A DNA stretch of 56,418 bases from Deltaproteobacteria bacterium (lineage in GTDB: Bacteria; Desulfobacterota; JAJRXV01). The position numbers were made by a program, and so were the translations under genes. Numbering within the stretch: position 1 is the first letter of the stretch; each line of letters starts with the position of its first letter. Under the pieces are notes generated by a model. It did not search any database. It saw nothing but the letters and a program-made list of their open reading frames with translations, and had not been told where the DNA came from. The stretch lies in the NCBI GenBank assembly GCA_024276115.1, contig JAJRXV010000264.1:1-56418 (forward strand), in the 5' to 3' direction. Positions 6,668 through 51,381 of this stretch are shown here, piece after piece.

Positions 6668-8548
6668 ATGAATAAAAACAAGTCCTTACTTTTTGTGTTA
6701 GTTTTGATTATTACTTCTTTTCCGGTTGTTGCGCACGCAAGGTTTCTGCGTGTAAAAAACAGTGAGATAGAGGCTTATGCCGAGCCTGACAGCAGCTCTA
6801 AGGTTGTTGATATCTTACATAAAAATGAGCGATATGAGATACTTGAACAAAAAAACAACTATTATAAGTTAAAACTATATCGAAATAATCGTGGTTGGGT
6901 ATTCACTAACGATGTTGAAGTAAAAGGCTCCAAAATAGCCTTGCCCACAACAGAGACAACGATACTTGACCTCGACAAGATATACACTAATAGTTACGCC
7001 GTTATTATCGCGATCGATAACTACAAAGAGTTAGGAACGCTGGGTTACGCTAAAAGTGACGCGGCGTATATTAAACGTGAACTCCGAGCGCTCGGTTTTG
7101 ATAACTTCATAGAACTCTATGACAAAGCCGCGACGAGAGCAAATATAACAGATATTTTTGAGCGGGCACTGTTGAAAAAGTTAAAGAAAAATGACCGGCT
7201 ATTCGTTTTTTTTGCCGGCAAAAGTTTATCGAATGAAATTGCCCCAAAAATATATGAGGGCTACATATTACCTTATGACACAAAAAAGAAAGACATTGAA
7301 GAAACATCTTTTTCTATTGACGTGCTAGACGTTTTTTTCGCAAAGCTTCCAATACGACATCTGCTTGTAGTCTATGACATGAACTTATCGGGACTTTCAT
7401 TACGTAAAGGTATTAGCATACCTCAAAGCGCCCCTGGATATTTGCTTAATGTGACTTCACTTAAAGCGCGACAAGTCATATCAGCCGGCAGACATAACAA
7501 TGAAATGCAGTTTAAAGATGGTAAATCTATATTTATCACTACATTAGTAGAAGGTATGAATGGTTCAGCTGAGCAGGGAGTACCTGATGGAATAGTTACC
7601 GGTTCGGAGCTTGGAGCATATCTGAACCTGAAAGTCTCAATAAAAACACGTAGAAAACAGACGCCATATTTTGGTCGTGTTCAAGGTGGCGACAAAGGCG
7701 GAGAGTTTATGTTTACTAGGCGCCGTGGTTCTATTCTGGTCGATATGGAACTCAGCGATGTCAGAAAAGATGATTTTGACCCTGAATTGGATTTCATCAG
7801 AACGCTTGATGGTGACACGAGCAATGGCGATAATGCTGAGTTCGGCGATCTAGACAACCCTGAAGCCGCATTCGACAATATAGATGAGTCAATGATACAA
7901 AGTCCGCCGACCTTATTCCCGGGGGAGCTTGTTGTAATACCGGCAGGAGATTTTCAGATGGGGAGTATGGATGGTCATATTAATGAAAAACCAGAGCATA
8001 CTATTTACTTAGACCCATACTATATCGGCAGGTATGAAGTCACCAATAAGGAGTACAAAGAATTTATAGACGCTACTGGATATAAGCCGCCACTTAATGT
8101 TGAGGGAACTGATAGTGAATACAACATTTGGTCTGGAAGTGAGTATCCTTCAGGTCTAGAGAACCATCCAGTAGTTAATGTCAGCTGGTATGATGCCGAA
8201 GCATACTGTATCTGGTTGAGCAAAGTAACCGGAGAGCACTATAGGCTTCCGACTGAGGCCGAATGGGAAAAAGCCGCGCGTGGAAATGATCTACGTGTAT
8301 ATCCATGGGGCAATAAGAAGCCTAACAGGAAAAAAGCAAATTACAACAATAAATGGATTGGGGCGGATACTTTATTTACTGTTGGTTACTTTGATGATGG
8401 TAAGAGCTCATACTGGGTACATGATATGAGTGGCAATGTGGCAGAATGGTGCAGTGATTGGTACAATGAAGACTCTTACGCCAATAGCCCTAGAAGTAAC
8501 CCAAACGGCCCTGAAAAGGGAGTAAACAAAGTGGTTCGTGGGGGGTAA
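6668..8548 (+). CDS. exported SH3 / caspase-like (catalytic dyad lost) / FGE-sulfatase (SUMF1-type) multidomain protein, interrupted by an in-frame TAA
   Basis: 626-aa ORF with signal peptide MNKNKSLLFVLVLIITSFPVVAHA and an SH3-like segment. The Peptidase_C14-like core is YAVIIAIDNY...FVFFAGKS...LLVVYDMNLSG. An acidic linker precedes the FGE-sulfatase domain (GYKPP, HPVVNVSWYDAEAYCIWL, RLPTEAEWEKAARG, VVRGG). The domain continues in the same frame after the stop. Confidence 0.8.
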   Translation: MNKNKSLLFVLVLIITSFPVVAHARFLRVKNSEIEAYAEPDSSSKVVDILHKNERYEILEQKNNYYKLKLYRNNRGWVFTNDVEVKGSKIALPTTETTILDLDKIYTNSYAVIIAIDNYKELGTLGYAKSDAAYIKRELRALGFDNFIELYDKAATRANITDIFERALLKKLKKNDRLFVFFAGKSLSNEIAPKIYEGYILPYDTKKKDIEETSFSIDVLDVFFAKLPIRHLLVVYDMNLSGLSLRKGISIPQSAPGYLLNVTSLKARQVISAGRHNNEMQFKDGKSIFITTLVEGMNGSAEQGVPDGIVTGSELGAYLNLKVSIKTRRKQTPYFGRVQGGDKGGEFMFTRRRGSILVDMELSDVRKDDFDPELDFIRTLDGDTSNGDNAEFGDLDNPEAAFDNIDESMIQSPPTLFPGELVVIPAGDFQMGSMDGHINEKPEHTIYLDPYYIGRYEVTNKEYKEFIDATGYKPPLNVEGTDSEYNIWSGSEYPSGLENHPVVNVSWYDAEAYCIWLSKVTGEHYRLPTEAEWEKAARGNDLRVYPWGNKKPNRKKANYNNKWIGADTLFTVGYFDDGKSSYWVHDMSGNVAEWCSDWYNEDSYANSPRSNPNGPEKGVNKVVRGG

Positions 8549-8659
8549 TGGCACTCTACTGCTGACATGATCAGAAGTACTGCTCGATATGGGTATTATC
8601 CAAAATTAAGAAGTAACCGGTTCGGGTTCAGAGTTGTTCTTGAGCCAGAGAGGGAATAA
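8549..8659 (+). other. orphaned C-terminal 36 codons of the FGE-sulfatase domain (same frame as 6668..8548, after the in-frame TAA at 8546-8548)
   Basis: Hand translation gives WHSTADMIRSTARYGYYPKLRSNRFGFRVVLEPERE-TAA, which matches the canonical FGE C-terminus (RGG[S]W...R[ST]AxR...GFRV). Confidence 0.8.
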
Positions 8660-8712
8660 TTCCTAAAGCAATTAATAATACGAAGCATTTGGATTTATAT
8701 GTCAGGACTAAC

Positions 8713-9723
8713 ATGACTTTTGGAGAAACTATAAGGGAACTGAGAGAAGCAAATAAGCTTACCAAAAGGGAGACCGCCACCTATGCGAAATGCTCTCCGA
8801 CATATATCGCTAAGATAGAAAAAGAAAACGTTATCCCCGGAGACGAGATAATCATAAGACTCGCGAACCTTTTTAAGTACAACAAGAAAAAACTTCTATT
8901 TTTGGCAAAAAAAGAATCCACAGTACCAGAGGCTAAGAAACTTTTTGAAACTCAACTTGAGATATTTGAAAAGGAATTAATCAACGATTACTTCCTTACT
9001 ATCGTCACCCTCTCTCCTGCCGATTATAACACTGATGATGTACCGCTTATGGATACAGCAAAAAAGAGAGCGCTGGCCAAAAAAGTATGGGAAGAAATTG
9101 ACACCCACTACTCAACCAATATGGATGAAAGGTTCATTCTTTTCTATCACTCTAACATACATATCAGTGATTATTTGAATAAGTCGCTCAAAAGCATGGA
9201 TATAATAAAAACGTTGAAAAAGATGATTGAAAGTATAGAGTATAATATTCATGATGATAAAGTAACGGTGTATTTTATTGCCCCAGAAAAAACTCAAGTG
9301 CATAGCAACGTAGAACCAGCGAACCTTGGCGCACTAACCAGTATCCCATTATTGACCTGGGTACAGGCAGGTGAAATGACAGATTACAGCGATAAATACC
9401 CTTATGCGGGGTGTTCTGACGAATACATTTCGACAGACCTTAGGGGCGATCACCTTTTTGCGCTGCGAGTAAAGGGAGACAGTATGACCCCTAAGTTTTT
9501 AGAGGATGATATTGTGATAGTCGATCCAGATCAGCACCCGGAAAACGGAAGCTTTGTTGTTATCGCTAATATTGATACAAATGAGACAACATTAAAACAG
9601 TTGAAGATTTACAGTAATGACCTTATGGTGTTGCATCCATTAAATCCGGTCTATTCTGATACTGAGTTCTGCAACTGCCACAAAATAGTCGGGCGTGTAG
9701 TAAGAAAACAGACGAATTTTTAG
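8713..9723 (+). CDS. XRE-family HTH / LexA-like S24 autopeptidase repressor with a ~150-aa central insert
   Basis: The ORF track starts at TTG 8689; ATG 8713 (MTFGETIRELRE) is more likely. N-terminal Cro/CI-type HTH. The C-terminus carries IPLLTWVQAGEM (Ala-Gly cleavage motif), GDSMTP (Ser nucleophile) and TLKQL (Lys). Confidence 0.8.
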   Translation: MTFGETIRELREANKLTKRETATYAKCSPTYIAKIEKENVIPGDEIIIRLANLFKYNKKKLLFLAKKESTVPEAKKLFETQLEIFEKELINDYFLTIVTLSPADYNTDDVPLMDTAKKRALAKKVWEEIDTHYSTNMDERFILFYHSNIHISDYLNKSLKSMDIIKTLKKMIESIEYNIHDDKVTVYFIAPEKTQVHSNVEPANLGALTSIPLLTWVQAGEMTDYSDKYPYAGCSDEYISTDLRGDHLFALRVKGDSMTPKFLEDDIVIVDPDQHPENGSFVVIANIDTNETTLKQLKIYSNDLMVLHPLNPVYSDTEFCNCHKIVGRVVRKQTNF

Positions 9724-9785
9724 CTGTACCCTCCAAGTAAAAAAAAAACAATTTATTTCTCGACATTTGGAATTATTTCGTTAGA

Positions 9786-9863
9786 ATTAATCTAAGTAAT
9801 ATCCGGGTAAATTTATTCATGTAGTTTTTATACCAAAGTTAAGTTGTGGGGATTGATCTAAGT
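9786..9863. promoter_or_regulatory. pair of direct 12-mers ATT(A/G)ATCTAAGT (9786-9797, 9852-9863), candidate operator sites
   Basis: 11 of 12 nt are identical and the start-to-start spacing is 66 bp. They lie in the 240-bp AT-rich gap between the LexA-like gene and the REC-DHp gene. Confidence 0.3.
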
Positions 9864-9963
9864 GCAAATACACTACATAGACATTTTTTGAGTTCTGATA
9901 TATATAACGTAATGTATTTCTGTTTTGCTATTCTCCCTACAAGAAAAAGGAGGAGTAAACAGT

Positions 9964-10593
9964 ATGGAAAAAGTACTAATAATTGATGATAATCCTACTG
10001 ATAGGATTGTACAACAGAAAATGCTTGAGCAACAATATGATGTAAAAGTATCAGCAAGCCCCTTTGACGCAAAAGATATAATTACAGATTGGAACCCAGA
10101 CGTTATAGTTATAGATTATGCTATGCCTCGCATCAACGGAATTCAGGCGATCAAGTATTTAAAGGAAAAAACCAGCTACAAGGGTATATTCCTTATTCTT
10201 ACCGGACTTGATGACGTAAATATAGCGACCGAAGCGATCAGACAAGGGGCATACGATTATCTTGTAAAGCCGCTTGTACCAGAGATATTCAATCACAAAA
10301 TAAAAAACTGCTCAAAATATAGTGAATTGCTAAATGGGCGTAATGAAGAGATATCCTCTGTTACTGTTGAAAGAGTAATTTTGGCAATATTTCATGAACT
10401 AAAGCCACATCTTGACCAGATTGTCAGCTTAAGAGATAAAGTGTGCGCCTGTAGTGGCGTAAATAACGATGAAATAGACGCGTTTAAAGAACACTTAGCG
10501 TATCTCAACGATTTTGTGAGTAAACTAGGAGAGTTAAACCAATCCTCACAAAAGGAATACGCCGAAAACATTTTAGCTCACTATTTAAAGTGA
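9964..10593 (+). CDS. response-regulator receiver fused to a DHp/HisKA-like helical domain (no ATPase domain)
   Basis: ATG 9964 lies 8 nt after AAGGAGGAG; the ORF track starts at 9925. REC motifs are VLIIDDNP, DVIVIDYAMP and LVKP. The C-terminal ~70 aa carry an H-box-like FHELKPHL, with no N/G boxes. Confidence 0.8.
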   Translation: MEKVLIIDDNPTDRIVQQKMLEQQYDVKVSASPFDAKDIITDWNPDVIVIDYAMPRINGIQAIKYLKEKTSYKGIFLILTGLDDVNIATEAIRQGAYDYLVKPLVPEIFNHKIKNCSKYSELLNGRNEEISSVTVERVILAIFHELKPHLDQIVSLRDKVCACSGVNNDEIDAFKEHLAYLNDFVSKLGELNQSSQKEYAENILAHYLK

Positions 10594-10601
10594 CAAACAA
10601 T

Positions 10602-11522
10602 CTACTTTTGATCTAAGCTATCGAGGATATTATCTATTTCGTCAAGCTCTTCTGTCTTGTGTTTGATCTCTATTTCTTTGCCTGGAACGCTTGTACCGCT
10701 TTCCTGCTCATGTAAAAGACCCAGGTCCAAGGCAACACGATCTATTATCTTCTTATCGATAACAGCCGCTTTGACAAGATACCCCTCAAATAGACCATTG
10801 TCACATATAGTGTTGATCAGTCTTGGAATACCGCGCGAATATTGCTGAGTGACCTGAAGCGCCTCTCTGGTAAAGAGCATCTTCTGCGCACCCGCCATCT
10901 TTAAACGGAACTTAACATACTCCTCTGTTGATGTTTCGTCAAAAGATTTTAATGAGTACTTTAAGGCGACCCTTTGGTAAAGCGGCTCATCCATCTTTAA
11001 GTAATCTTCCATATCAGGAAGCCCGAAGAAAACAAATGTCAAAAGCTTTTTCTCAGGTAGCTCAAGGTTTAGCAACCCTCTGAACTCCTCCATTATTTCC
11101 TTGGTCTGCAACATCTGCGCTTCATCGACCAGAACAACCGCCTTTTTATTGTTTTCATGAAGTTCAAGCAAACGTTTGTAGAGTTGACTCAAGAGTTGTA
11201 ATTTATCATTTGTTGGTTCAGTCACACCAAGTTGCATCGCGATTTTTCTAAGTAGCCAGTTCGCGGTTATACCAGTATGGATGATAACAAGTAAGGCCGA
11301 CTCATATTCGTCTTCAGGGAGGTTATCGAGCATTTTTCTAGCAAGCGTTGTCTTGCCTGTTCCAATATCACCGACAAGTAAAGCGAGCCCCTTCATAGAT
11401 TCAACAGCATATTTAAGTCTTATAAGCGCCTCGGAGTGCTGCTTGCTGTTATAATAAAACTTTCCGACCGGTGCGTTTGAGAATGGCTCTTGAATTAATC
11501 CGTAAAAATCTAAATAGCTCAT
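10602..11522 (-). CDS. ExeA/MshM-like AAA+ ATPase (secretin-assembly / MSHA biogenesis type)
   Basis: 306 aa. MSYLDFYGLxxxPF N-terminus, Walker A GDIGTGKTT, Walker B VVLVDEAQ. Lies in a cluster with a secretin and a TPR protein. Confidence 0.85.
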   Translation of the reverse strand: MSYLDFYGLIQEPFSNAPVGKFYYNSKQHSEALIRLKYAVESMKGLALLVGDIGTGKTTLARKMLDNLPEDEYESALLVIIHTGITANWLLRKIAMQLGVTEPTNDKLQLLSQLYKRLLELHENNKKAVVLVDEAQMLQTKEIMEEFRGLLNLELPEKKLLTFVFFGLPDMEDYLKMDEPLYQRVALKYSLKSFDETSTEEYVKFRLKMAGAQKMLFTREALQVTQQYSRGIPRLINTICDNGLFEGYLVKAAVIDKKIIDRVALDLGLLHEQESGTSVPGKEIEIKHKTEELDEIDNILDSLDQK

Positions 11523-11571
11523 ATTACCCCCCTATAGAAATAACTTAAACAACAACAAGTAATTCCCTTAA

Positions 11572-14028
11572 TTATATGTAAGATATCTTATTTTTCTTCT
11601 TAACCTTCTGCTCAACAGTAGTGCTCTTTTCTGAGTTTAATAACATCTGTATTTCCCCTTTTACATTTTTAAACGACGGGTCAATATCTTTTACCATATT
11701 AAAACACTTTAACGCTTCCGCTGGTTTCCCTTTTTCACTGTATGCCTTACCCAGCTCGTACCTGAGTCCAATTTTTTTATCTGAAGGCAAGTCAATATTA
11801 GAAAATATTTTTTCTATATAGCCAATAGCGTCAGCATAGTTTTTCATCTCAAGAGCCACCATCCCAAGCATAGTGTAACACTCTAATATTTTAGATGAAT
11901 CAGCAGAAAATGCTTTTTTAAACTCTTCAATTGAGTCGGCAAGCAATCCCATCTCTTTGTACGCTATTCCAAGGTTATAGTGAGAATCATAATCTTTCAA
12001 GTCTATGTTCTCTTCGATCCCCTTTTTGAACTTTGAAAAGATGTTTTCCGCTTCAACTCTGTCATCTAAAGCTTCCGCGTTCGGGTTAGACGCCAGCCCA
12101 AGAACATCATCAGGTAGCGAAGCTTCTAGCTCCCTTGCGAAATCTATGATCTGATCACCTTCTCGTACCGGGGTCATTGGCTTATTTACATTCCCCGACC
12201 CTATTTCAATTTGCTCAAGTCTATCGACTGCCATCATATTGTATGGATCATCTAAGAGGACTCTCTTATATATATTTTTGGCATCATCAAAAAGCCCCTC
12301 AGCAAAGTAAAATTCTGCCTCTTCAAGAGCTTCTGTAAACTGTTTTTTCGTGGCGCCGCCATTCCCTGCTCTCTGCTGTATTATCTCTGGTGGTTCTTCA
12401 ACAACAAGGTCTATACCTTCAAAGTTCTCAATGTCCGGTATCTCAGACTTGAAATCATCAAATGACTCCGTGGTTTTTGCCCCAGCGTCAGGCATGACTG
12501 TCGCATTTGCTCCCAAGTTTTCAAGCCTCTCCATAGCCTTTGGATTGTCAGGAACGACCTTCAACACTTCTTGCAAAAATTTTATTCCAAGTTGAGTGTT
12601 TTTTTCTACGACAAGGCAGTACTCAGATAAGCTGAAAAGTTCGTCTACAGCCTTTTTTTTCTCGTTTTGAGCTAATAGTAAATCCTTAAGTAATATTCGC
12701 GCGTCTAAATTATTTTTATCCTCATTTAGAACAAAGTCAATGTGTTCTTGTACCTGGTCATACAAACCGTACTTTAAGTATACATTTGCCTCAGTAATAT
12801 GTTCATTTATAACATCTGAATTCGCTTCAGTTGCGTGATCACTAAAAGCGCCAGTAAACAGCTCATGATTGCCACGCTCGAAATAGCTCTTTGCCTTTAC
12901 ATGGTTCGGGTTGATCTGGAGTATCTTCTGATACAAAAAATCAGCTTTTTCAGTTTGACCATTTATCTCATAAGCCCCAGCTAACTGTTCATACACTACA
13001 GACAACTTATCAATATTATTGTAGTATCTATATATTTCAGCTAATTTTTCAAGAATATCTATACTATTTGGCTTCTTTTTCAAAGCTTCGTTATAAAAGT
13101 CCGCCAGCTCAAGTAGCTCACTATTCTCAACAAAATCATTGTAAAAAGGCTCAAGCTCTTTTATTGCCTCATCTACGTTATCCTTGCCTAAAAATATTTT
13201 ACTCAAACCAAACTTAGCTCTATGATTCTTATTATCTTGCCGCAATATATCACAGTAAATAGACTCAGCATCGTTATATTTGTCTAAGACAATATATGTC
13301 TCGGCTAGGATCAGCATCGTTCCTACATCTTTCTGGTCAAGTTTTTGGGCTGCCTGTATCCTTTTCAACCCCTCCTCAGAGTTACCAAGGTGTATATACG
13401 CTCTAGCAATCTCTTTCAGCAAGTACTTATCTTTTGGTTCAATACCAAGAAAATATTCAAGCGTTTTTACCTGCTCCTGAAATGCTTTTTTTTCTTTATA
13501 CTCTTGAGACAGCTCACCGATAATCTCATAGGCGGCACATGGGTCACTATTCTTAAAATGTATTTCCGCCATTTTGATCTTTGCCGCGGAATTGGTAGGG
13601 TCCAGGTCAAGCACCTTCTGCAATACTCTGATCGTTTCTGGGAATTTCCCCTGCTTACCATACATCTTCGCGGCATATTTGTACTGTTGCAGGGCATCAC
13701 CGATGAGCCCCTGCTTTTCAAACAATTCCGCGATATTGATATTTACATCAAGATTGTTTGGATCAATACGCGATACCATTTTGTAGGTCGCTATGGCGCG
13801 ATTGTTGAATCCATCTTTTAGGTATATTGACGCGGCCCTGTTGTACGCGTCTTTAGCCTCTTGTTTTCTGCTCTTTCGCAACAAGAGATCACCCAGTTTA
13901 ATATGAAGAGAGGCCTCATCTTGCTCGACATCAATGATATTCTCAAGCTCTTTAATAGCTTTATCTATCTGACCTCGCTGAATATGCTTTTGTATTAGAT
14001 TTAATGAACTACTTTTACTAAATGCCAA
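11572..14028 (-). CDS. large TPR-repeat protein (MshN-like position in the cluster)
   Basis: 818 aa with TPR units throughout, TTG start after GAAGGTG, and no obvious signal peptide. Confidence 0.8.
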   Translation of the reverse strand: MAFSKSSSLNLIQKHIQRGQIDKAIKELENIIDVEQDEASLHIKLGDLLLRKSRKQEAKDAYNRAASIYLKDGFNNRAIATYKMVSRIDPNNLDVNINIAELFEKQGLIGDALQQYKYAAKMYGKQGKFPETIRVLQKVLDLDPTNSAAKIKMAEIHFKNSDPCAAYEIIGELSQEYKEKKAFQEQVKTLEYFLGIEPKDKYLLKEIARAYIHLGNSEEGLKRIQAAQKLDQKDVGTMLILAETYIVLDKYNDAESIYCDILRQDNKNHRAKFGLSKIFLGKDNVDEAIKELEPFYNDFVENSELLELADFYNEALKKKPNSIDILEKLAEIYRYYNNIDKLSVVYEQLAGAYEINGQTEKADFLYQKILQINPNHVKAKSYFERGNHELFTGAFSDHATEANSDVINEHITEANVYLKYGLYDQVQEHIDFVLNEDKNNLDARILLKDLLLAQNEKKKAVDELFSLSEYCLVVEKNTQLGIKFLQEVLKVVPDNPKAMERLENLGANATVMPDAGAKTTESFDDFKSEIPDIENFEGIDLVVEEPPEIIQQRAGNGGATKKQFTEALEEAEFYFAEGLFDDAKNIYKRVLLDDPYNMMAVDRLEQIEIGSGNVNKPMTPVREGDQIIDFARELEASLPDDVLGLASNPNAEALDDRVEAENIFSKFKKGIEENIDLKDYDSHYNLGIAYKEMGLLADSIEEFKKAFSADSSKILECYTMLGMVALEMKNYADAIGYIEKIFSNIDLPSDKKIGLRYELGKAYSEKGKPAEALKCFNMVKDIDPSFKNVKGEIQMLLNSEKSTTVEQKVKKKNKISYI

Positions 14029-14039
14029 TTTGTCACCTT

Positions 14040-14573
14040 CTATCTCTTTCTTTGTAATTCTAGAATATTTGTATCATTATAATACTCTTTTGTTACAACT
14101 CGTTGAATCCTCTCCAACCTTGCGATGATATCCTTTATTCTCAATGAGTTCACCTCAATAAGCTTCAAGCGATCAATAGTATCTTCATCACCTTTGAATT
14201 TTAAAATCAATGACTCTACCGCAATTAAAACAGATGTCAAAGGGTTGTTGATCTCATGATTCACACTTGCGACTACATCTCGCAGTGTTTTTACTTTTTC
14301 TCCCTCAACAAACTGATCACTATACTCTCGTTTGTCCAACAAAGACCTTATCCGCGCCAGTAACTCCTGCGAATTAAACGGCTTTGTCAAATAATCATCA
14401 ATACCACAGTTTATGCCTTTTATTTTATCCGAAGTCTCGCTCTTCGCTGTTATCATTATTATGGGGATGAATTTTGTCTTATCATTCCCTTTCAAGTGCT
14501 CGGCGACTTTATAGCCATCTATAACATCCATCATAACATCAAGCAACAATATGTCGGGTTTGAAGCTCTTCAC
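14040..14573 (-). CDS. response-regulator receiver + DHp/HisKA-like domain; the N-terminus is cut off by an in-frame TAA (full gene 14040..14720)
   Basis: The track ORF starts at GTG 14573 in the middle of a REC domain (PDILLLDVMMDVIDG, LTKPF). H-box-like NHEINNPLT is followed by two helices only. Confidence 0.8.
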   Translation of the reverse strand: MKSFKPDILLLDVMMDVIDGYKVAEHLKGNDKTKFIPIIMITAKSETSDKIKGINCGIDDYLTKPFNSQELLARIRSLLDKREYSDQFVEGEKVKTLRDVVASVNHEINNPLTSVLIAVESLILKFKGDEDTIDRLKLIEVNSLRIKDIIARLERIQRVVTKEYYNDTNILELQRKR

Positions 14574-14720
14574 CTCCGCGATACCGCTTGCTCCGTCATA
14601 AGCTACCGCGACAATGTAACCATTTGTCTCTAAGAGGTATTTTACATACTTGACTAATGATTTATCATCTTAAATGATCAAAACCCGATGTTGCTTATCG
14701 GTTTTTTCTATCTTTGTCAT
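14574..14720 (-). other. 5' part of the REC-DHp gene: ATG 14720, 16 codons, in-frame TAA (14672-14670), then REC beta1-alpha1
   Basis: Hand translation of the minus strand gives AAGGAAG-N7-ATG MTKIEKTDKQHRVLII-TAA-DDKSLVKYVKYLLETNGYIVAVAYDGASGIAEV, which joins the downstream ORF in frame. It overlaps the secretin 3' end by 26 nt. Confidence 0.75.
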
Positions 14721-16107
14721 AGTATTCTTCCTTATACTGCATCATGTGAGTATTAATGTTGCCATCCTCAATGAGTATCGGCGTTATCAGAATCAACAGT
14801 TTTTCATTTGAGTCTATCTTACTCTCCTGCTTAAACATCCACCCGATAAAAGGTATTTTCGAAAAGAATGGTACCGAATTTGTAACTTCATTGTTAATAT
14901 TTTTATCGAGCCCTCCAATAACCGTGGTCTCACCATTCTTTACCAAAACTGTTGTCTCAGCGTTCTTGTCTATTATTCCGGGTATACCATCAACGACTTT
15001 TGAAAAATCCGCCTCACTCTTCGTAGCGGATATCTTAAGCTCTATCAGGTCACCATAGGATACTTTTGGTGTCACAATAAGATCAACACCGACATTTATC
15101 TGTTCTAGCTCGCTTTCAAGAGAAGTCGTATCGCCAGACGTAACATTCGATGACGTTCGCACTCTATATGTCATACCACTGTGAATCTTCGCGGGCTTAT
15201 TATTGAGTGTAGCTATGTGCGGCTCTGATATTATCTTGATTTTCCCGCTTTTTTCCATAGCGGAAAGCCGTAAATCCAAGTTCACAACATTGTTTATGCT
15301 CCCAAGATTTATACCGACTCCTGAAGTGGAGCCAGAAACTGGCATATTAACCGCGTAAGTCCCGCTACCTGCCCCGCCTGCAATCCCGATACTGTTAGGA
15401 AAACTATACTGAGTGGCGTTACCATAAGCTGAATTCATCACATAACTCCCACCCCACTGCACTCCAAGCTCCTTAGTAAAGTCAGATGTAGTTTCAAGTA
15501 TCCAAGCTTTGATCATTATCTGCTTGGGCTGAGTGTCAAGCTTCCTGATTATCTCTTTAATATTGTCTATTTCTTCTTTATCAACATTAAGGATCAATGA
15601 GTTAGTCCTCTCATCAGCAGAGACACTACTTCCGTCAGGCATTATTTCACTCAAGTTTTCTTTGAGCTCACTTGAGCTCGCGTACCTTAATGTTACTATC
15701 GCGGTAATAGTCTCTATTTTCTTCTCAGCAGACGCTTCTTTTTTCTCCTCTTCTTTAGCCGGTAAGTCTTCCTCTTTTATTATTCTAATTACGCCATCTT
15801 CTTCAATGTACGCGAGCTTATTAGCTTTTAAAATAGTGTTCAACGCGCTTTTTAAAGATATTTTTTCAAAGCTTAATGTCACTTTCGCGTTTATATCCTC
15901 TGATACAATCAGGTTGATATCGTTTTCCTTCGCAATTGCTCTGAGCAAATCTTTTATATCAACATCTCTGCATTCGATCGAAAAAAACGTTTCCCCTTTG
16001 ATATTAAAGGGGGTGAGCTTTTTGTCTCCTGAAGGAATTGTATATCCATTGCCTGCACCGAGAAGCATCATGAAGACAATCAATATAATAAAAGTATTTC
16101 TCTTCAT
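14695..16107 (-). CDS. outer-membrane secretin (MshL / type II-IV pilus secretin family)
   Basis: 470 aa with a signal peptide, secretin N-domains and a C-terminal secretin core (TTVIGGL...VPFFSKIPFIGWMF...EKLLILITP). Confidence 0.9.
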   Translation of the reverse strand: MKRNTFIILIVFMMLLGAGNGYTIPSGDKKLTPFNIKGETFFSIECRDVDIKDLLRAIAKENDINLIVSEDINAKVTLSFEKISLKSALNTILKANKLAYIEEDGVIRIIKEEDLPAKEEEKKEASAEKKIETITAIVTLRYASSSELKENLSEIMPDGSSVSADERTNSLILNVDKEEIDNIKEIIRKLDTQPKQIMIKAWILETTSDFTKELGVQWGGSYVMNSAYGNATQYSFPNSIGIAGGAGSGTYAVNMPVSGSTSGVGINLGSINNVVNLDLRLSAMEKSGKIKIISEPHIATLNNKPAKIHSGMTYRVRTSSNVTSGDTTSLESELEQINVGVDLIVTPKVSYGDLIELKISATKSEADFSKVVDGIPGIIDKNAETTVLVKNGETTVIGGLDKNINNEVTNSVPFFSKIPFIGWMFKQESKIDSNEKLLILITPILIEDGNINTHMMQYKEEYYDKDRKNR

Positions 16108-16626
16108 CTATTTAGTTTCACTCTCTATAGTAAAATCTTTAAGCTCTACTTTGTATTGTTGCCCATTAAAATCAAGTTTGACAAAGTCTTTCTCTATCTT
16201 CAATATTTTTTGCTTATTGACAATACTTCCGACCTTTAAAACCTTCCCATCAATTATCGCGCTTGAGCTTTTCTCACTATATAATATCGCGTTTAATTCA
16301 ACTTTGGGGGGGGTAGGTAATTCAATAAGCTCTACCTCATAAGCTGAATTATTCTTCGGCGACTCGACAGTAGAGACCGGAAATACAAAAGGATCTTTTT
16401 CAGACCAAGGAATATTGCTCAAAAAAGAAATCTCATCCTTGTCATAGTTAATTTCAGACAATGACTCCACCCTGCTGTTATCAAGAGCGAACGAATGTGT
16501 TTTCGTATGCAATATCAACAACGTACACGTAATAGCAATAAGATATATATTAACCATAAGGCGCTTTGTAGTTCCTCGCACAATCAACATATCATTATTG
16601 TAACACATAATCACCAATAGTTGCAA
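16108..16626 (-). CDS. PilP/MshK/GspC-like small pilot or assembly protein (single TM helix or signal anchor)
   Basis: Its stop abuts the secretin ATG. The C-terminal beta-rich segment AIIDGKVLKVGSIVNKQKILKIEKDFVKLDFNGQQYKVEL resembles PilP/MshK-type domains. The start is uncertain, with alternative ATGs at 16590 and 16557. Confidence 0.5.
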   Translation of the reverse strand: MQLLVIMCYNNDMLIVRGTTKRLMVNIYLIAITCTLLILHTKTHSFALDNSRVESLSEINYDKDEISFLSNIPWSEKDPFVFPVSTVESPKNNSAYEVELIELPTPPKVELNAILYSEKSSSAIIDGKVLKVGSIVNKQKILKIEKDFVKLDFNGQQYKVELKDFTIESETK

Positions 16627-16753
16627 TGATTAAAATGATTTGCAACATTTTATTAACCCAAGTTATTTATGTTTGGTTACATTCAAAAAGTAACGAGTTT
16701 TTAGCGCGAGGCGACGACAAGGCCAACACCGTTAAGGTTTAAATGAATATAAG

Positions 16754-16780
16754 TTGACATCACTTTGACATCACTATAAT
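16754..16780 (+). promoter_or_regulatory. candidate sigma70-type promoter with tandem TTGACATCAC repeat
   Basis: TTGACA (16754-16759), 15-nt spacer, TATAAT (16775-16780). The -35 decamer is directly repeated at 16765-16774. It lies about 160 nt upstream of the 16939 ORF. Confidence 0.35.
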
Positions 16781-16938
16781 AATAGTAACAAAAACATACG
16801 GCAATTTCAAATCAAATGAAATAAATAAATAAAAATATGTTAGAAAAGTATTTACTTTTTCCCCTTACCCCTTTACATATAGTTTTTTTTTTGTTAACAT
16901 ACTCTTAGTTTGTAGGAAACACTAATAAAATTCTAAAT

Positions 16939-17298
16939 GTGAATAAATTAATTATGAAAAAATATTGCTACTATTGCCCGACATGCCAAAAAGTTACCCT
17001 TATGACCCTTGTTAAAGAGGATCAAAATAAGAATACCACTTTTTTAAAATGTATAGTCTGCTCTGACACTGAGCAGAGTAAAAACTGCGGGGTGGGACAA
17101 AATGGAGAGGATTTGGGAGACGGCATAAAAGAGTACAGTCCGAAAGCTTCTTATGAAGTCGGTGATATTTTGTTCCATAAAACATTCAACGATACTGGAG
17201 AAGTAGTTAAAATTACTCAAAGATTAAATGGACAGTGTGTAAATACTGTTCTTTTTAAGACCGCGGGACTAAAAAAACTAATAACCATACCAAAATAG
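16939..17298 (+). CDS. zinc-ribbon protein with SH3/KOW-like C-terminal half, function unknown
   Basis: 119 aa with CPTC...CIVC and C-terminal YEVGDILFHKTFNDTGEVVKI. Alternative ATG at 16954. No clear SD sequence. Confidence 0.5.
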   Translation: MNKLIMKKYCYYCPTCQKVTLMTLVKEDQNKNTTFLKCIVCSDTEQSKNCGVGQNGEDLGDGIKEYSPKASYEVGDILFHKTFNDTGEVVKITQRLNGQCVNTVLFKTAGLKKLITIPK

Positions 17299-17324
17299 TG
17301 TTGCAATACTATAAACTATCAGAG

Positions 17325-19166
17325 TCAATCAAAATACATCCGCATGAATTTCTCAAACGTTAATAGTGCGCATATCTGCTCACTATAATCCCTTTTCCCT
17401 GAAAGGTGCGCGTCAAAATATTTCCGGACATTATATAAATTGTAAATACCTCTATCTCTGGTCACTTTCGAAAAAAGTATGTCTTCGGCATAGTCTCTTA
17501 ACTCTCCACGAAGCCATTTGTCAAACATAAGGTAATGTTTGTATCGAGAGAGACGGATTTTAGTGGTTTTTTCTACTTCATGCTTTAGTTTCATCACGTG
17601 CTTACCAAAAAAATGCATGAATGCCGGACAGTTAAAGGGTAGCATAGTCTTTTCACATATCACTCGGTTTAACTCTGGGCGGAGTCGCTTTATTATATTC
17701 AGGTGAACCAGGGAGCGATTGCATTTTAACTCTTCTGGTGTTCTCATCAACAGCTCGATGTAATTGTTATCTAAAAAGGGGTAAGAGATTCTGTAATAAG
17801 GTCTCTTGAGAACAAATCCCGAAGTGATAAATTTCCGGACACGCTCATTCAGGTAAAACATGTTCAACGTCTCTTTGATTGAAAAATCCTCATACCGTTT
17901 AAATGAATACTCAAGAGAATCTTTCGGTCTGTTCACCATAAATTTAAGATAACTCTCATTAAAAAGATTAAACCCATTAGAGAGATTAAATACAGCTGAA
18001 ATATCATGAAATATTTTTTCACGTAGCTCTATCTTTGTCTTACTTGTACGGTTTTTCACACTGTGATAAAATCCCCGAGCGAACTCACCGCCATCACCAA
18101 CTATCATGTGATTCACCCGCGCGGCGATACGTCTATTCGCCGGAAAGCCGCCGGTATGGAAAACATTAAGCATACCATCGGTCATCCTCACCGCTGTTTT
18201 CGCGTGCTCAGCAAGAAAATCTCCTTGATATTTCAAGAACCCATGATCGGTTTTTAATTTTTTTGAGAGTTTAGTCGCTATCTTCTCGTCTATACAGCCA
18301 TCAAGACCATAAGTAAATGTTCGCAAGTGTTCTGCTTTACTTGTTGCCGAAGAAATAATAGCACGGGTATCTAAGCCGGCCGTCAAAAAAAAGCCGGGAT
18401 CACCTATGTCGATACAATCATTAATAGCCTTGTCAAAAGCGTCAGTAAGCGCGTCAAAAATATCATCATCACTACATGTCAGCTTCTCCTTTGGTTCTAA
18501 TGAATTATAATAATTATAGATAACATATTTTTCATCATTCAGGTCATATCTAATAACCGACCCCGGTGAGAGCAGCGTAACACCCTCTATGAGTGTATCC
18601 TCCTGCATAACATAACCAAAAGTAAAGAAATCCGCGCACGCCTTCAAATTGAGCTCTTTTTTTATCCTACCTGTCTCTAATAACGGCTTGACCTCCGCCG
18701 CGAAAAAAAACTCATTACCATTTGCGAAATAGTAAAGCGGGTACAATCCAAGCCTGTCATTCAAAATGAAAAACTGTCTTTTTTTCTTATCATGTATCAA
18801 ACAATTAAAAGAACCTTTGAGTTTTCCAAACGCATCTTCACCATACATACAATAAAGTTGAGATACAACCTCAGCATCAGCGGTTAAGTGGTTAATATCA
18901 CACTCTTTAGAGAATTCATCTACATGCGATAAAAAACCATTAAAAATAACGGATATATCATCGCTCTGATAGGTGAATCTCACAGCCTCGTTCCCTAGTG
19001 AGTTTACATAAACATTCCCAAAAGAGTTACTATTCTTAATATTATCAGTATGTTTTGATTCAATAGAAAACTTATTGAAGTGCTGAAGATAACACATATC
19101 GTCAATCATTCGCCTTAATATCAAATGACTCTCACGACAGTTAATTACTCCAACAATACCAGGCAT
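17325..19166 (-). CDS. asparagine-synthetase (AsnB) family protein lacking the N-terminal Cys nucleophile
   Basis: ATG 19166 lies 6 nt after GGAGA and gives MPGIVGVI, where canonical AsnB has MCGI. The PP-loop position reads LTAGLDTR instead of SGGxDS. The track start at 19208 is less likely. Confidence 0.75.
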   Translation of the reverse strand: MPGIVGVINCRESHLILRRMIDDMCYLQHFNKFSIESKHTDNIKNSNSFGNVYVNSLGNEAVRFTYQSDDISVIFNGFLSHVDEFSKECDINHLTADAEVVSQLYCMYGEDAFGKLKGSFNCLIHDKKKRQFFILNDRLGLYPLYYFANGNEFFFAAEVKPLLETGRIKKELNLKACADFFTFGYVMQEDTLIEGVTLLSPGSVIRYDLNDEKYVIYNYYNSLEPKEKLTCSDDDIFDALTDAFDKAINDCIDIGDPGFFLTAGLDTRAIISSATSKAEHLRTFTYGLDGCIDEKIATKLSKKLKTDHGFLKYQGDFLAEHAKTAVRMTDGMLNVFHTGGFPANRRIAARVNHMIVGDGGEFARGFYHSVKNRTSKTKIELREKIFHDISAVFNLSNGFNLFNESYLKFMVNRPKDSLEYSFKRYEDFSIKETLNMFYLNERVRKFITSGFVLKRPYYRISYPFLDNNYIELLMRTPEELKCNRSLVHLNIIKRLRPELNRVICEKTMLPFNCPAFMHFFGKHVMKLKHEVEKTTKIRLSRYKHYLMFDKWLRGELRDYAEDILFSKVTRDRGIYNLYNVRKYFDAHLSGKRDYSEQICALLTFEKFMRMYFD

Positions 19167-19330
19167 TAATATCTCCAACAACATATTATTTGAGAAAAAT
19201 AAAGCCAATTCAAATTACCACATAGTTGTATATATGTCAAATAAAAAAAAGAATTCGCGTGTTTTCTCAAAAAAACAAAAAAACTTTTGTGGTTCAAGTG
19301 GCAAGTAGGAATATATTAAGGAGAAAATCT

Positions 19331-22809: not shown

Positions 22810-23044
22810 TATACGACCCCCTATATGAAGTTCTTATCTATGAATTTTCCTGTTTATATGTTTCATGATGAGCATTATCTAAGAATTATACTTCGCGCAG
22901 TCTAATTGTCAAGTACTTTTGGGAAAGATTTTCTAGGAATTTTCGTTCAAAGAAGCGGTAATCTGTGACTTTTTTTACTTTAGGAAAGAAACCTTGAGCG
23001 GCGCGTCGGTGAGTACAAGCCTACCCCCGCAACCCTGGTATTTT

Positions 23045-23140
23045 TGGCGGAAGTGCATGGGAATCGAACCCACCGAAGGTTTTTTCAACCTTCCACCGGA
23101 TTTGAAGTCCGGGAGACCCACCAGTGACCTATCCACTTCC
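23045..23140 (-). tRNA. selC: tRNA-Sec (anticodon UCA)
   Basis: 96 nt: GGAAGTGGATAGGTCACTGGTGGGTCTCCCGGACTTCAAATCCGGTGGAAGGTTGAAAAAACCTTCGGTGGGTTCGATTCCCATGCACTTCCGCCA. Anticodon arm CCGGA-CTTCAAA-TCCGG, 7-bp extra arm GAAGGTT/AACCTTC, T loop GGTTCGATTCC, encoded CCA. Close to the E. coli selC layout. Confidence 0.92.
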
Positions 23141-23143
23141 ATT

Positions 23144-23464
23144 TTAATTGATATCGTGTTCTGTGAAGTAATTCGCGAGGTTAGCGTCAATACGTAAAAA
23201 AGTCACCCCCATCCCGCATCTGGTGACATTCATCATTTGCAGTGGTACTTTTCTTGCCCACGTCACCAGACCTTCAGCGTGCATATTAACATCTTTATCT
23301 TTGATTGTCATCTTTAATTTTGTTCCGGGCCTAAAAACATGGTTCGTCTTGATCCTTAGCCCAGTCGCAGAGATATCAACCAAAAACCCAATTAAATCAG
23401 GATGCTGGACGCCAAACTTAATATTTAACCTCTTTTTGTGCCGACCCGCTCTTCGTTTTTCCAT
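23144..23464 (-). CDS. PilZ-domain c-di-GMP binding protein
   Basis: 106 aa with RRAGR (RxxxR) and DISATG (D/NxSxxG) motifs. Confidence 0.8.
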   Translation of the reverse strand: MEKRRAGRHKKRLNIKFGVQHPDLIGFLVDISATGLRIKTNHVFRPGTKLKMTIKDKDVNMHAEGLVTWARKVPLQMMNVTRCGMGVTFLRIDANLANYFTEHDIN

Positions 23465-23605
23465 TTTTTTCCCTAAACTTGATTAAATTATACCAAATGT
23501 TTGCGATAAATCAAGCAAGTTCAAGTTTTTGTTGTTTTTTCTTGAAATAATGTTTTTTTATGGTATAAATTATACAGGTATTTTATATTTACAAGGGGGA
23601 GTTAA

Positions 23606-23785
23606 ATGGCTATTCCAAAGGTGGAAACTTCAAAATGTGATGGTTGTGGAAACTGCATCGACGTCTGTCCCGCAGACGTTTTCGAAATACAAGAGGGGAA
23701 ATCTGTTGTTGTAAGACCAGACGATTGTGTCGAGTGCATGGCGTGTGTAGAAAACTGCCCCACCGAAGCTATTGAGATGGTGTAA
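23606..23785 (+). CDS. 2x[4Fe-4S] ferredoxin (59 aa, below the ORF-track cutoff)
   Basis: Hand translation gives MAIPKVETSKCDGCGNCIDVCPADVFEIQEGKSVVVRPDDCVECMACVENCPTEAIEMV. RBS AGGGGGAG lies 5 nt upstream. Confidence 0.85.
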   Translation: MAIPKVETSKCDGCGNCIDVCPADVFEIQEGKSVVVRPDDCVECMACVENCPTEAIEMV

Positions 23786-23839
23786 CAAAAGCAGAGCGTT
23801 TCATTCACAAAAAATCAATTTAATATTAATATTTTCAGG

Positions 23840-24367
23840 GTGAATAATCCAGTTATGATAAATAATAGTGTCTTAGACGCGATTTACAACAGAAGAAGCG
23901 TACGGTTTTACACTGATGAACTGGTCGATGACGAGAGTGTCAAAGAGATAATCAGAGCCGGGAGTTTTGCGCCCTCAGGTCTGAACAACCAACCATGGCG
24001 CTTTATAACTATAAGGACTCCTGAAATAAAAAACAACATCTCTGAACTCACTCACTACTCAAAAATCGTCATTGAAGCAAATGTCTTAATAGCTGTTATG
24101 CTTGACACAGACGCTATATACAACCGCGATAAGGATTTGCAGGCTATCGGGGCGTGCCTGCAGAACATGCTGCTCGCTATCCACTCGTTACGGCTCGGCG
24201 CTGTCTGGCTCGGTGAAATACTGAACCAAAAAGACCAATTCAATAAACTACTGTCAGTCGAAGAGAGGTACGAGCTTATGGCAGTTGTCGCGATCGGACA
24301 CCAGACAAAAAAGACGCTCTCATACAGCCGCAAAAACATCGATGAACTCATTATAAAAGAAATCTAA
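23840..24367 (+). CDS. nitroreductase-family flavoprotein
   Basis: 175 aa with RRSVRFY and PSGLNNQPWRF motifs. Confidence 0.85.
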   Translation: MNNPVMINNSVLDAIYNRRSVRFYTDELVDDESVKEIIRAGSFAPSGLNNQPWRFITIRTPEIKNNISELTHYSKIVIEANVLIAVMLDTDAIYNRDKDLQAIGACLQNMLLAIHSLRLGAVWLGEILNQKDQFNKLLSVEERYELMAVVAIGHQTKKTLSYSRKNIDELIIKEI

Positions 24368-24382
24368 ACTTGGAGGAATATC

Positions 24383-25810
24383 TTGCCAAACAGTAAAATA
24401 AAATTCGGTACTTCGGGTTGGCGCGGTCTGCTCGCTGAAGACTTTACCGTAGCCAACGTAAAGAGGGTCGTGCAGGCGATAAGCAACTACATAAAGAACA
24501 ATAAGCTTCATAAAATGCCTGTCGTGATCGGGTATGACACACGTTTTCTCGGCGATAAATTCGCGCGGATCGCGGCTGAAGTGCTCGCCGGCAACAAGAT
24601 CAGCTCTCTGCTTTGCGACCGTGATACACCGACACCTGTGATAGCGTATGAAATCATCCGAAAGAAAGCGGCAGGTGGCATAAATTTCACTGCTAGCCAC
24701 AATCCGTATGACTACAACGGTATCAAGTTTTCACCAGAATGGGGCGGGCCGGCTCTACCGGAAACGACTAAGCAGATAGAGACGGAGATCAGCAAGATAA
24801 AAGAAGCGGATGTCAAGTCTATGGAGTTTGACAAGGCGAAGGAGAATGGGCTGATTAAGATGCACAACCCGATTCGGAGCTACTTTGCCGCGCTGCGAAA
24901 AAAAGTGGACATAAAAGTCCTCTCTAGCGCGAAGCTCAACCTCGCGATCGACACTTTGTATGGTACCGCCACCGGTTATCTCGACAAGTTCCTTGACGAT
25001 ATCAACGTAAACTATGATATAATCCATAATTACAAGGACGCGTATTTTGGTGGCGCGGCACCCGAGCCGTCAGAAAAGCAGCTCAAGGAGCTCACCGGAA
25101 TCATCAAAGATAACGATGATATCGGGCTTGGAATAGCGACAGACGGTGACGCTGACCGCTTTGGGATTGTCGATGCTGACGGTAGCTTCATTGAGCCGAA
25201 CACGATAATCGCGCTACTGCTCGATTACCTCATCGAGACGCGAGGGCTAGAGGGCGGTGTCGCGCGTAGTGTGGCGACGACCCACCTTATCGATGCCGTG
25301 GCGAAAAAACATGGGCGTGAGGTTTACGAAACACCCGTTGGCTTCAAGTATATCGGTGAACTCATCTCAGAGGGAAAAGTCGTGATCGGTGGCGAGGAGA
25401 GCGCCGGACTGAGCATCAAAGGGCATGTCCCGGAGAAGGATGGAATACTAGCGTGCCTGCTGGTGGCAGAAATGGTCGCGCGCCGTAAAAAGCCGCTTGC
25501 AAAAATGATTGAAGAGTTGTATAAAGAAGTTGGAAAGATACTGACCAAACGTCTTAATTTCAGACTGACCGCAAAAGAGAAAGAAAGTTTTTTAAAGCGG
25601 ATAAAAACTCCGCCAAAGACGATAGCCGGGCTGAAAGTCGCCAAAATCATAAAAATAGATGGCGCCAAGCTCATGCTTGAAGATGGTAGCTGGCTATTGA
25701 TGCGCGCCTCTGGTACTGAACCGGTGATAAGGCTCTACGTCGAGGCAGGATCGCAGGCGAAATTGAACAAGCTCGGAAACGCTGGCAGGGATTTTATATA
25801 TAACAAGTAG
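24383..25810 (+). CDS. phosphoglucomutase/phosphomannomutase family protein
   Basis: 475 aa. FGTSGWRG, the phosphoserine loop TASHNP, and GIATDGDADR metal loop. Confidence 0.9.
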   Translation: MPNSKIKFGTSGWRGLLAEDFTVANVKRVVQAISNYIKNNKLHKMPVVIGYDTRFLGDKFARIAAEVLAGNKISSLLCDRDTPTPVIAYEIIRKKAAGGINFTASHNPYDYNGIKFSPEWGGPALPETTKQIETEISKIKEADVKSMEFDKAKENGLIKMHNPIRSYFAALRKKVDIKVLSSAKLNLAIDTLYGTATGYLDKFLDDINVNYDIIHNYKDAYFGGAAPEPSEKQLKELTGIIKDNDDIGLGIATDGDADRFGIVDADGSFIEPNTIIALLLDYLIETRGLEGGVARSVATTHLIDAVAKKHGREVYETPVGFKYIGELISEGKVVIGGEESAGLSIKGHVPEKDGILACLLVAEMVARRKKPLAKMIEELYKEVGKILTKRLNFRLTAKEKESFLKRIKTPPKTIAGLKVAKIIKIDGAKLMLEDGSWLLMRASGTEPVIRLYVEAGSQAKLNKLGNAGRDFIYNK

Positions 25811-25827
25811 TGGACTAGGAGGAAGTT

Positions 25828-25947
25828 TTGTTTTTTAAGATACTGATTGTCGGTGCGTTGCAGGTCAACTGTTACATAATCGCGTGTTAAACGACGAAGG
25901 AAGCGGTCGTTATAGACCCGGGCGACAATGTCGCTCAAATAACTAAG
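25828..25947 (+). other. 5' part of the MBL-fold hydrolase gene: TTG 25828, 20 codons, in-frame TAA (25888-25890), 19 more codons
   Basis: AGGAGGA (25816-25822) is followed by TTG. Hand translation gives MFFKILIVGALQVNCYIIAC-TAA-TTKEAVVIDPGDNVAQITK, in frame with 25948..26445. Confidence 0.8.
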
Positions 25948-51337: not shown

Positions 51338-51381
51338 ACTGCCGGTCTCCTTCGTTCTTGAGGGAGCCGGCAGTTTTTTTT
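51338..51381. terminator. bidirectional rho-independent terminator between the lipoprotein gene and prfB
   Basis: Stem CTGCCGGTCTCC (51339-51350) pairs with GGGAGCCGGCAG (51362-51373), followed by a T8 run. An A-rich stretch precedes it for the opposite strand. Confidence 0.75.

Follow-up and report, generated by a model that had tools for sequence, protein, structure and literature searches.

Three in-frame ochre stops in otherwise intact genes of a 56-kb bacterial contig may best be read as recent nonsense alleles

Introduction

What does it mean when three genes, intact in every other respect, each carry one internal TAA codon within 17 kb of a single contig: have three functions just been lost, is TAA decoded here as an amino acid, or do the codons exist only in the assembly? 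The window, by which we mean the whole 56-kb contig (56,418 nucleotides), comes from a sulfate-reducer-like bacterium, and 3 of its ~44 genes (~7% of the contig's genes) are interrupted in this way. Having compared them with syntenic orthologs from Thermodesulfobacteriota MAGs that are 60–70% identical, we lean towards regarding them as ordinary, very recent nonsense alleles, i.e., as three independent premature ochre stops that arose from conserved sense codons.

Results

Each interrupted gene holds a single TAA at a conserved position

The three genes and their premature stops are as follows:

6668-8659, + strand: gene for an SH3 / caspase-like / FGE-sulfatase-domain protein; read-through ORF of 663 codons
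8546-8548, + strand: premature TAA, site 1 (GGG-TAA-T); codon 627, at the Ser of the RGGSW motif (FGE-sulfatase)
14040-14720, - strand: response-regulator gene (receiver + HisKA-like); 226 codons, RBS AAGGAAG, ATG at 14720
14670-14672, - strand: premature TAA, site 2 (ATT-TAA-G); codon 17, at the first acidic residue of the LIIEDD pocket (LII*DD)
25828-26445, + strand: gene for an MBL-fold (GloB-like) hydrolase; 205 codons, RBS AGGAGG, TTG start
25888-25890, + strand: premature TAA, site 3 (TGT-TAA-A); codon 21 (AC*TTKEA)

All three codons were found where the initial annotation had placed them and in the same contexts, each of them in frame and with homology that crosses the stop. The true terminator of the FGE-domain gene is a TAA at 8657-8659, and the read-through frame ends in VLEPER(E), just as the orthologs (637-665 aa) end in VLEPE[RK]. 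The premature stop in this gene occupies the position of a Ser that is present in four orthologs and in solved FGE structures (PDB: GGS[F/W]) and that is encoded by TCA, TCA, and TCC in three orthologs, while the 14 residues past it, ADMIRSTARYGYYP, are identical in one ortholog (L004). Site 2 falls on a residue that is Glu in seven of seven orthologs (LIIEDD), with the codon GAA in L004 and L005; these regulators are 222-234 aa long and lie within the same PilQ-RR-TPR-ATPase cluster. At site 3, Glu occurs in 15 of 19 aligned homologs, and both syntenic orthologs (L002 and L003) use GAA. The orthologous hydrolases measure 205-221 aa and have the same ferredoxin-nitroreductase-PGM genes upstream, where the window has:

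23606-23785: ferredoxin gene, intact

The claim that the three genes are otherwise intact held up as well: an RBS and a start precede each stop, the frames contain no second lesion, invariant residues persist downstream, and the read-through ORFs have the length of their orthologs. Since all three frames are otherwise free of decay and still conserved, the changes would have to be very recent. The public gene calls are truncated products of 626 aa (cut at the stop; P0241), 177 aa (P0121), and 165 aa (P0001), respectively, which places the stops in the deposited sequence. If translation terminates at these codons, the FGE-domain protein would lose its last 37 residues, the conserved C-terminal GFR strand included, whereas the response regulator would end after 16 residues, ahead of its Asp-Asp pocket, and the MBL hydrolase after 20, effectively two predicted null alleles. 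The stop in the regulator gene may additionally exert polar effects on the TPR/ATPase genes downstream.

Elsewhere the window is in good order. Pfam/NCBIfam profile coverage and ortholog lengths, complete across its 43-44 genes, revealed no further interrupted gene, and ~20 housekeeping genes (EF-G, FtsH, UvrA, Mfd, RF2, GlmM, and others) are intact. The gene names assigned initially (surA, pdxA, uvrA, the aminotransferase, the PilZ gene, and prfB with its CTT-TGA-C +1 frameshift site) stand. Among 44 genes, this programmed frameshift in prfB is the only one that we found, which counts against a generally error-prone assembly. A count within the window of same-frame ORF pairs split by one stop, a check that had been suggested for the genome, returned four other pairs (16108 TAG, 19215 TAA, 24365 TAA, and 38856 TAA), and profile coverage together with the gene order of relatives identified all four as merely adjacent genes.

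TAA acts as a terminator in the window

TAA terminates 22 of 43 window genes, several of which share their C-terminal end with the orthologs; it is the commonest terminator and stands in tandem (TAA-TAA) in two genes. At sense positions, by comparison, in-frame TAA accounts for 3 of 17,358 codons, and the residues opposite them in the alignments are Ser, Glu, and Glu. As the initial annotation had reported, RF2 is encoded in the window by an intact prfB with its frameshift site, and no shared read-through signal is apparent: alignment of the three stops showed no common motif or context (the next base is T, G, and A), and folding showed no downstream RNA structure at any of them (z-scores of -0.46, -0.52, and -1.31). 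A search of the window with ARAGORN and Rfam yielded no suppressor tRNA, the only tRNA being a tRNA-Sec(UCA). In the orthologs of the three genes, a stop at the same position is absent and sense codons are used throughout.

These observations bear directly on whether TAA has been reassigned, is put to a context-dependent dual use, or marks sites of programmed recoding, as one might suspect when 17 kb contain three TAA codons in frame, each at a conserved position. Because TAA ends half of the genes at ortholog C-termini and is so scarce at sense positions, because the stops are not conserved in orthologs, and because the window offers neither a suppressor tRNA nor a common context or structure, reassignment or recoding is very unlikely here, and we consider it exceedingly improbable as an account of the three sites. 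Genome-wide reassignment had been judged unlikely from the outset, and within the window it is effectively refuted. Known bacterial reassignments of stop codons also count against it, as they so far concern UGA only and never TAA (PMC8629427).

The stops could also be real and be partly read through by a weak ochre suppressor, either a mutated tRNA or a UUA allo-tRNA, that is encoded elsewhere or on a mobile element. In-frame TAA codons would be tolerated under such a tRNA and hence could accumulate, which would fit both the exclusive use of TAA (three of three) and the undecayed ORFs past the stops; natural (9/3) allo-tRNAs with UAA-stop anticodons are indeed known from metagenomes (PMC5389517). 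However, the window is without such a tRNA, three TAA stops out of three are expected by chance at p ~0.07-0.11, and a single tRNA would be unable to restore all three proteins since the replaced residues differ. The prevalence of TAA as a terminator, tandem TAA-TAA included, and the sense codons of the orthologs argue against suppression too. We regard partial read-through as improbable, and a lineage with a weak natural ochre suppressor (e.g., a UUA allo-tRNA), for which UAA would have an ambiguous meaning, as quite improbable.

All three stops belong to one mutation class

The ancestral codons TCA, GAA, and GAA that had been deduced from family consensus are the codons that the syntenic orthologs use (with TCC also at site 1), and each stop is thus a single G:C>T:A step away, TCA>TAA once and GAA>TAA twice. 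On the nonsense reading, each stop would have arisen through one independent change of this class and would be read as a terminator by RF1/RF2. At this codon usage, G:C>T:A transversions make up 26-36% of the nonsense-generating paths, which gives p ~0.02-0.05 for three out of three.

The initial annotation had seen in this pattern a signature of 8-oxoG damage or of MutY/MutM deficiency. The class of change itself stands and suggests the chemical route that is expected of unrepaired 8-oxoG:A mispairs, but it comprises three events only, and the wider spectrum shows no significant G:C>T:A enrichment: such changes constitute 12% of the private single-step differences in the window lineage versus 9% of those in its relatives (Fisher p = 0.066, or 0.12 when the stops are left out), in a comparison with two relatives that is saturated at 60–70% amino-acid identity and yields weak trends only. 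As for repair genes, uvrA and mfd are in the window, both intact, and it contains none of mutY, mutM, and mutT.

The private replacements do differ in severity. Radical single-step replacements number 32 in the window lineage versus 17 and 15 in the relatives (~2x, p = 0.012), whereas conservative ones are equal, and the excess is spread over all mutation classes. This excess is compatible with somewhat relaxed purifying selection. At codon-identical sites, two nonsense changes contrast with zero radical G:C>T:A missense changes (conditional p ~0.055), a ratio that one would not quite expect if G:C>T:A changes arose unfiltered.

Nonsense alleles or errors in the assembly

An artefact of sequencing, library preparation, or consensus calling would mean that the organism has GAA and TCA at these sites and that the T:A calls came either from an assembly or polishing error or from oxidised guanines in a low-copy template, such as DNA that had been amplified or had very low coverage. 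Each of the three changes belongs to the class that 8-oxoG produces in vitro (G>T or C>A), the genes bear no other sign of decay, and a consensus error or template damage would look identical to a real allele. The contig is, furthermore, a singleton in the protein collection and thus uncorroborated: searches for proteins identical to EF-G, PilQ, and the truncated MBL call of the contig found no independent copy, a scan of GTDB representative genomes yielded a single relative, 56% identical and not syntenic, and exact-pattern scans of JGI metagenomes for the surroundings of sites 3 and 2, in which the mutated base was set to N, returned 0 hits.

Oxidative artefacts, however, are usually low-fraction and do not reach the consensus. 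Three nonsense errors would imply ~30-70 more substitutions in the window, yet we saw neither a frameshift nor, at conserved sites with identical codons, any radical missense change of the G:C>T:A class. In the 17,358 codons, ~20 hidden missense changes would be expected, of which ~0.3 would fall in the testable invariant columns of EF-G/UvrA. Errors at random positions should, moreover, strike housekeeping genes and gene middles, whereas the hits observed are confined to accessory or regulatory genes (accessory genes hold ~43% of the codons; p ~0.08) and each falls in the outermost ~10% of its gene (p ~0.009, post hoc). We accordingly treat an artefact as an unlikely but serious contender.

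The number of interrupted genes is elevated, on small numbers. Among ~98 called genes in the loci of relatives we saw no obvious same-frame split, as against 3 of ~44 here (rough Fisher p ~0.03), and none of 20 ortholog copies of 10 compared genes was interrupted. Judged from sequence comparison, the stops are most likely genuine loss-of-function alleles of the sampled lineage, located in dispensable accessory genes. Two features sit less comfortably with this reading. Clustering near gene ends is not what one would predict if dispensable genes had simply acquired null alleles, and three nonsense lesions with zero frameshift lesions, all of them TAA and all G:C>T:A, are an unusual mix for plain gene decay.

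Discussion

If the alleles are real, the lineage would have just lost three accessory functions via one class of base change, namely a caspase/FGE-domain envelope protein, a regulator of the secretin/TPR cluster, and an MBL hydrolase, which would hint at an episode of mutator activity or of relaxed selection. If they are artefacts, a public assembly has a quality problem, which has already spread as three truncated protein entries. In either case, the stops give no pointer to a new genetic code.

With the known stop reassignments (UGA>Trp in code 4, UGA>Gly in code 25, and TAG>Gln in phages), the locus shares in-frame stops in conserved genes, but here the codon is TAA, which is still the main terminator, three genes only are affected, and different amino acids are replaced. 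Ochre suppressor tRNAs, such as the allo-tRNA(UUA) that exists in nature (PMC5389517), are alike in that in-frame TAA would be tolerated; the window contains none, and read-through is a possibility only. The locus resembles the spectrum of GO-system (MutY/MutM/MutT) deficiency, and that of 8-oxoG library artefacts, in having the hallmark G:C>T:A change at all three sites, and it departs from GO-system deficiency in comprising three events only (p ~0.04) and in private substitutions without significant enrichment (p = 0.07-0.12).

The nearest likeness is to "internal stop" pseudogenes and recent loss-of-function alleles. Compared with these, the present case is peculiar in that the interruptions affect ~7% of the genes of one contig, that frameshifts are lacking, that all stops are TAA and all changes G:C>T:A, and that nothing has decayed downstream, which would make the events very young (or not real). 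What they have in common is a single in-frame stop that is lineage-specific, an ortholog sense codon that lies one substitution away, and truncated products from gene callers.

Premature TAA codons in three conserved genes

The three internal stops, which the initial annotation had quoted by their sequence contexts, were located at the following positions:

8546-8548, + strand: site 1, TAA at codon 627 of 663 in an FGE-domain protein gene (6668-8659)
14670-14672, - strand: site 2, TAA at codon 17 of 226 in a receiver+HisKA regulator gene (14040-14720)
25888-25890, + strand: site 3, TAA at codon 21 of 205 in an MBL-fold hydrolase gene (25828-26445)

Translated codon by codon, the genes read ...NKVVRGG-stop-WHSTADMIRSTARYGYYPKLRSNRFGFRVVLEPERE-stop (site 1), MTKIEKTDKQHRVLII-stop-DDKSLVKYV... 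(site 2), and (TTG)FFKILIVGALQVNCYIIAC-stop-TTKEAVVIDPGD... (site 3). Good ribosome-binding sites precede the regulator (AAGGAAG-N7-ATG) and the hydrolase (AGGAGG-N5-TTG), while the FGE gene starts 1 nt past the aminotransferase stop, with much the same spacing in its ortholog. The public gene calls are truncated versions of 626, 177, and 165 aa, respectively, and the stops are therefore present in the deposited sequence. All three lie within ~10% of a gene end (post hoc p ~0.009), a clustering that mutation, artefact, and suppression models alike predict poorly.

Homology continues across each stop. At site 1, solved FGE structures align across GGS[F/W] as far as the terminal GFR motif, and all four orthologs (60-63% identical, 637-665 aa, compared to 663 codons for the read-through frame) read VVRGGSW and end in VLEPE[RK]. 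The regulator motif LIIEDDK occurs in 7/7 orthologs, and Glu occupies the interrupted hydrolase position in 15 of 19 homologs. Three to four related MAGs or metagenome contigs supplied syntenic loci for comparison (L002 and L004, JGI 3300041080; L003, GCA_042574985.1; L005 and L006, GCA_024275075.1; L007, JGI 3300041077). These loci have two stretches of gene order in common with the window: aminotransferase, FGE protein, LexA-like, response regulator (RR), ATPase, TPR, RR, PilQ; and PilZ, ferredoxin, nitroreductase, phosphoglucomutase (PGM), MBL. Their codons are TCC/TCA/TCA (Ser) at site 1, GAA/GAA (Glu) at site 2, and GAA/GAA (Glu) at site 3. All three TAAs therefore differ from the ortholog codon by a single G:C>T:A transversion, with no indel, as had been proposed from the sequence alone.

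Gene content and intactness of the window

The window is an entire public contig (56,418 bp; G+C 43.6%) whose own gene products are present in the protein collection, and its ~44 genes belong to a Thermodesulfobacteriota-like ("deltaproteobacterial") organism: surA, pdxA, uvrA, a HEAT protein, the aminotransferase, the SH3/caspase/FGE-domain protein, a LexA-like repressor, a response regulator, an ExeA-like ATPase, a large TPR protein, the receiver+HisKA regulator, pilQ, an Asn-synthase-like gene, a PMT_2 glycosyltransferase, EF-G, tRNA-Sec, a PilZ protein, ferredoxin, nitroreductase, phosphoglucomutase, the MBL-fold hydrolase, mfd, nadA, ftsH, folP, dacA, ybbR, glmM, pdxJ, acpS, yjeF, argJ, kinases, aroE, ribF, a multihaem cytochrome, and prfB. 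The names originally assigned were essentially correct. Additional features are:

6668-16626: cluster also found in L004, L005, and L007, conserved among relatives (caspase/FGE-domain protein, LexA-like HTH-S24 repressor, receiver protein, ExeA-like ATPase, ~810-aa TPR protein, receiver+HisKA protein with no ATPase domain, PilQ-type secretin, small T2SSB-like protein); contains two of the three interrupted genes
14695-14720: 26-nt overlap of the PilQ frame with the 5' end of the interrupted regulator gene; the PilQ C-terminus is ~9-16 aa longer than in L005, where both genes abut without overlap
17325-19208, - strand: Asn-synthase/amidotransferase-like protein, whose alignment with the family profile begins at position 1; it starts MPGIVG instead of MCGI, so that the Cys nucleophile at the N-terminus of the glutaminase domain is missing
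51380-52481, - strand: prfB (RF2), frameshift site at ~52413-52418

The RF2 autoregulatory site noted earlier is a canonical programmed +1 frameshift, MINFKMFFQEQQKKINALRSHL-CTT-TGA-C, with GGAG a few bases upstream.

Intactness was evaluated from all same-frame ORF pairs with one stop between them, from profile coverage at both ends, and from ortholog lengths. Across 43 ORFs (17,358 codons) the three TAAs were the only internal stops and, barring the programmed prfB frameshift, profile coverage and ortholog lengths revealed no further truncation or frameshift among the remaining genes. Four further one-stop pairs (PilQ and its upstream gene, the Asn-synthase-like gene, nitroreductase/PGM, and AcpS/YjeF) were rejected as neighbouring genes with complete profile coverage. 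Among the relatives, a FecCD-type permease gene (L002, 5099-6051, - strand) is broken by a frameshift, giving gene calls of 124 aa and 187 aa, a lesion different in kind from the TAAs of the window.

TAA remains a terminator

TAA, TAG, and TGA terminate 22, 16, and 5 of 43 genes in the window. This usage, with unusually frequent TAG and little TGA, recurs in relatives (35/23/5 in long ORFs of L001-L005) and is thus a clade trait rather than a peculiarity of the contig. A reassignment of TAA (already held unlikely in the initial annotation), or its programmed recoding, is very improbable: TAA coincides with the ortholog C-terminus in the aminotransferase, the FGE protein (at its true end), the TPR protein, nitroreductase, and ferredoxin; tandem TAA-TAA terminates two genes; the replaced residues differ (Ser, Glu, Glu); and the premature stops are not conserved among orthologs. 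That annotation also saw no shared read-through signal. The 70 nt past each stop contained no common motif, and their folds were no more stable than those of shuffled sequences (z = -0.46, -0.52, -1.31). Known bacterial stop reassignments all involve UGA (PMC8629427), and ARAGORN and Rfam detected no suppressor tRNA in the window, only tRNA-Sec(UCA).

That tRNA-Sec gene (23045-23140, - strand; Rfam 79 bits) is flanked by EF-G and the PilZ gene; selA/B/D are absent from the window, and deltaproteobacterial tRNA-Sec-like 'selC*' tRNA-Cys variants, of which it may be one, are on record (PMC5389517). Allo-tRNAs with UUA anticodons do exist (PMC5389517), but we regard it as improbable that the stops are real and partly suppressed, and as slightly less probable still that a natural ochre suppressor makes TAA tolerable.

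Mutation spectrum and origin of the stops

G:C>T:A changes make up 34% of single-step nonsense paths at the codon usage of the window (26-31% with transition bias, ~36% weighted by the lineage's own spectrum), and three out of three stops in this class therefore give p ~0.02-0.05. That all three are TAA has p ~0.07 under a uniform spectrum and 0.11 within G:C>T:A. The 8-oxoG signature proposed initially is suggested by the stops but not clearly by the lineage: over 10 orthologous genes (3,466 aligned codons) compared with two relatives (nearest relatives at 60-70% protein identity), G:C>T:A accounted for 12% of window-private single-step codon differences versus 9% in the relatives (Fisher p = 0.066; 0.12 without the stops). 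At codon-identical sites, private G:C>T:A missense changes numbered 11, all of them conservative and in third position; none was radical, where an unfiltered G:C>T:A process is expected to leave ~3 radical missense changes for every nonsense change (conditional p ~0.055).

Radical single-step private replacements (BLOSUM <= -1) were about twice as frequent in the window (32 versus 17 and 15; 5500-26445 against L002-L006), with conservative ones equal (147/140/152; odds ratio 2.0, p = 0.012). They comprise every mutation class and fall mostly at variable positions. This excess is a weak hint that the window lineage is under relaxed constraint or carries some extra load, and it may also stem from low-level sequence error; judged from these substitutions, the lineage pattern does not look like a G:C>T:A-specific signature.

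We somewhat favor the reading that the premature TAAs are genuine in vivo alleles. That they arose in vitro or in the consensus is rather unlikely, even though every change belongs to the 8-oxoG class, the sequence downstream of each stop is undecayed, and the contig is a singleton (neither exact-protein look-ups, nor a search of GTDB representative genomes, nor two pattern scans of JGI metagenomes found a second copy or same-species DNA). The counterevidence is indirect: 44 genes without a frameshift, so that the assembly is not sloppy; confinement of the stops to accessory or regulatory genes, with ~20 housekeeping genes intact; and the ~30-70 other substitutions that a random error process yielding three stops should leave.

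If the alleles are genuine, three G:C>T:A substitutions, independent of one another and all very recent, would have created ochre codons that RF1/RF2 read as stops. The FGE-domain protein would lose its last 37 residues, the regulator would end after 16 residues, ahead of the receiver's Asp-Asp pocket, and the hydrolase after 20, ahead of the first MBL-fold strands. As the nearest in-frame restarts are GTG codons 50 (regulator) and 41 (hydrolase), the starts used in the public gene calls, both proteins are predicted to be functionally null. No new mechanism is needed to explain the window, and the three genes fall into the already familiar category of internal-stop pseudogenes or loss-of-function alleles. 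Compared to the usual members of that category, the window is a little unusual in the density of lesions (3 in ~44 genes) and in that these are uniformly TAA and G:C>T:A, in genes that are otherwise intact.
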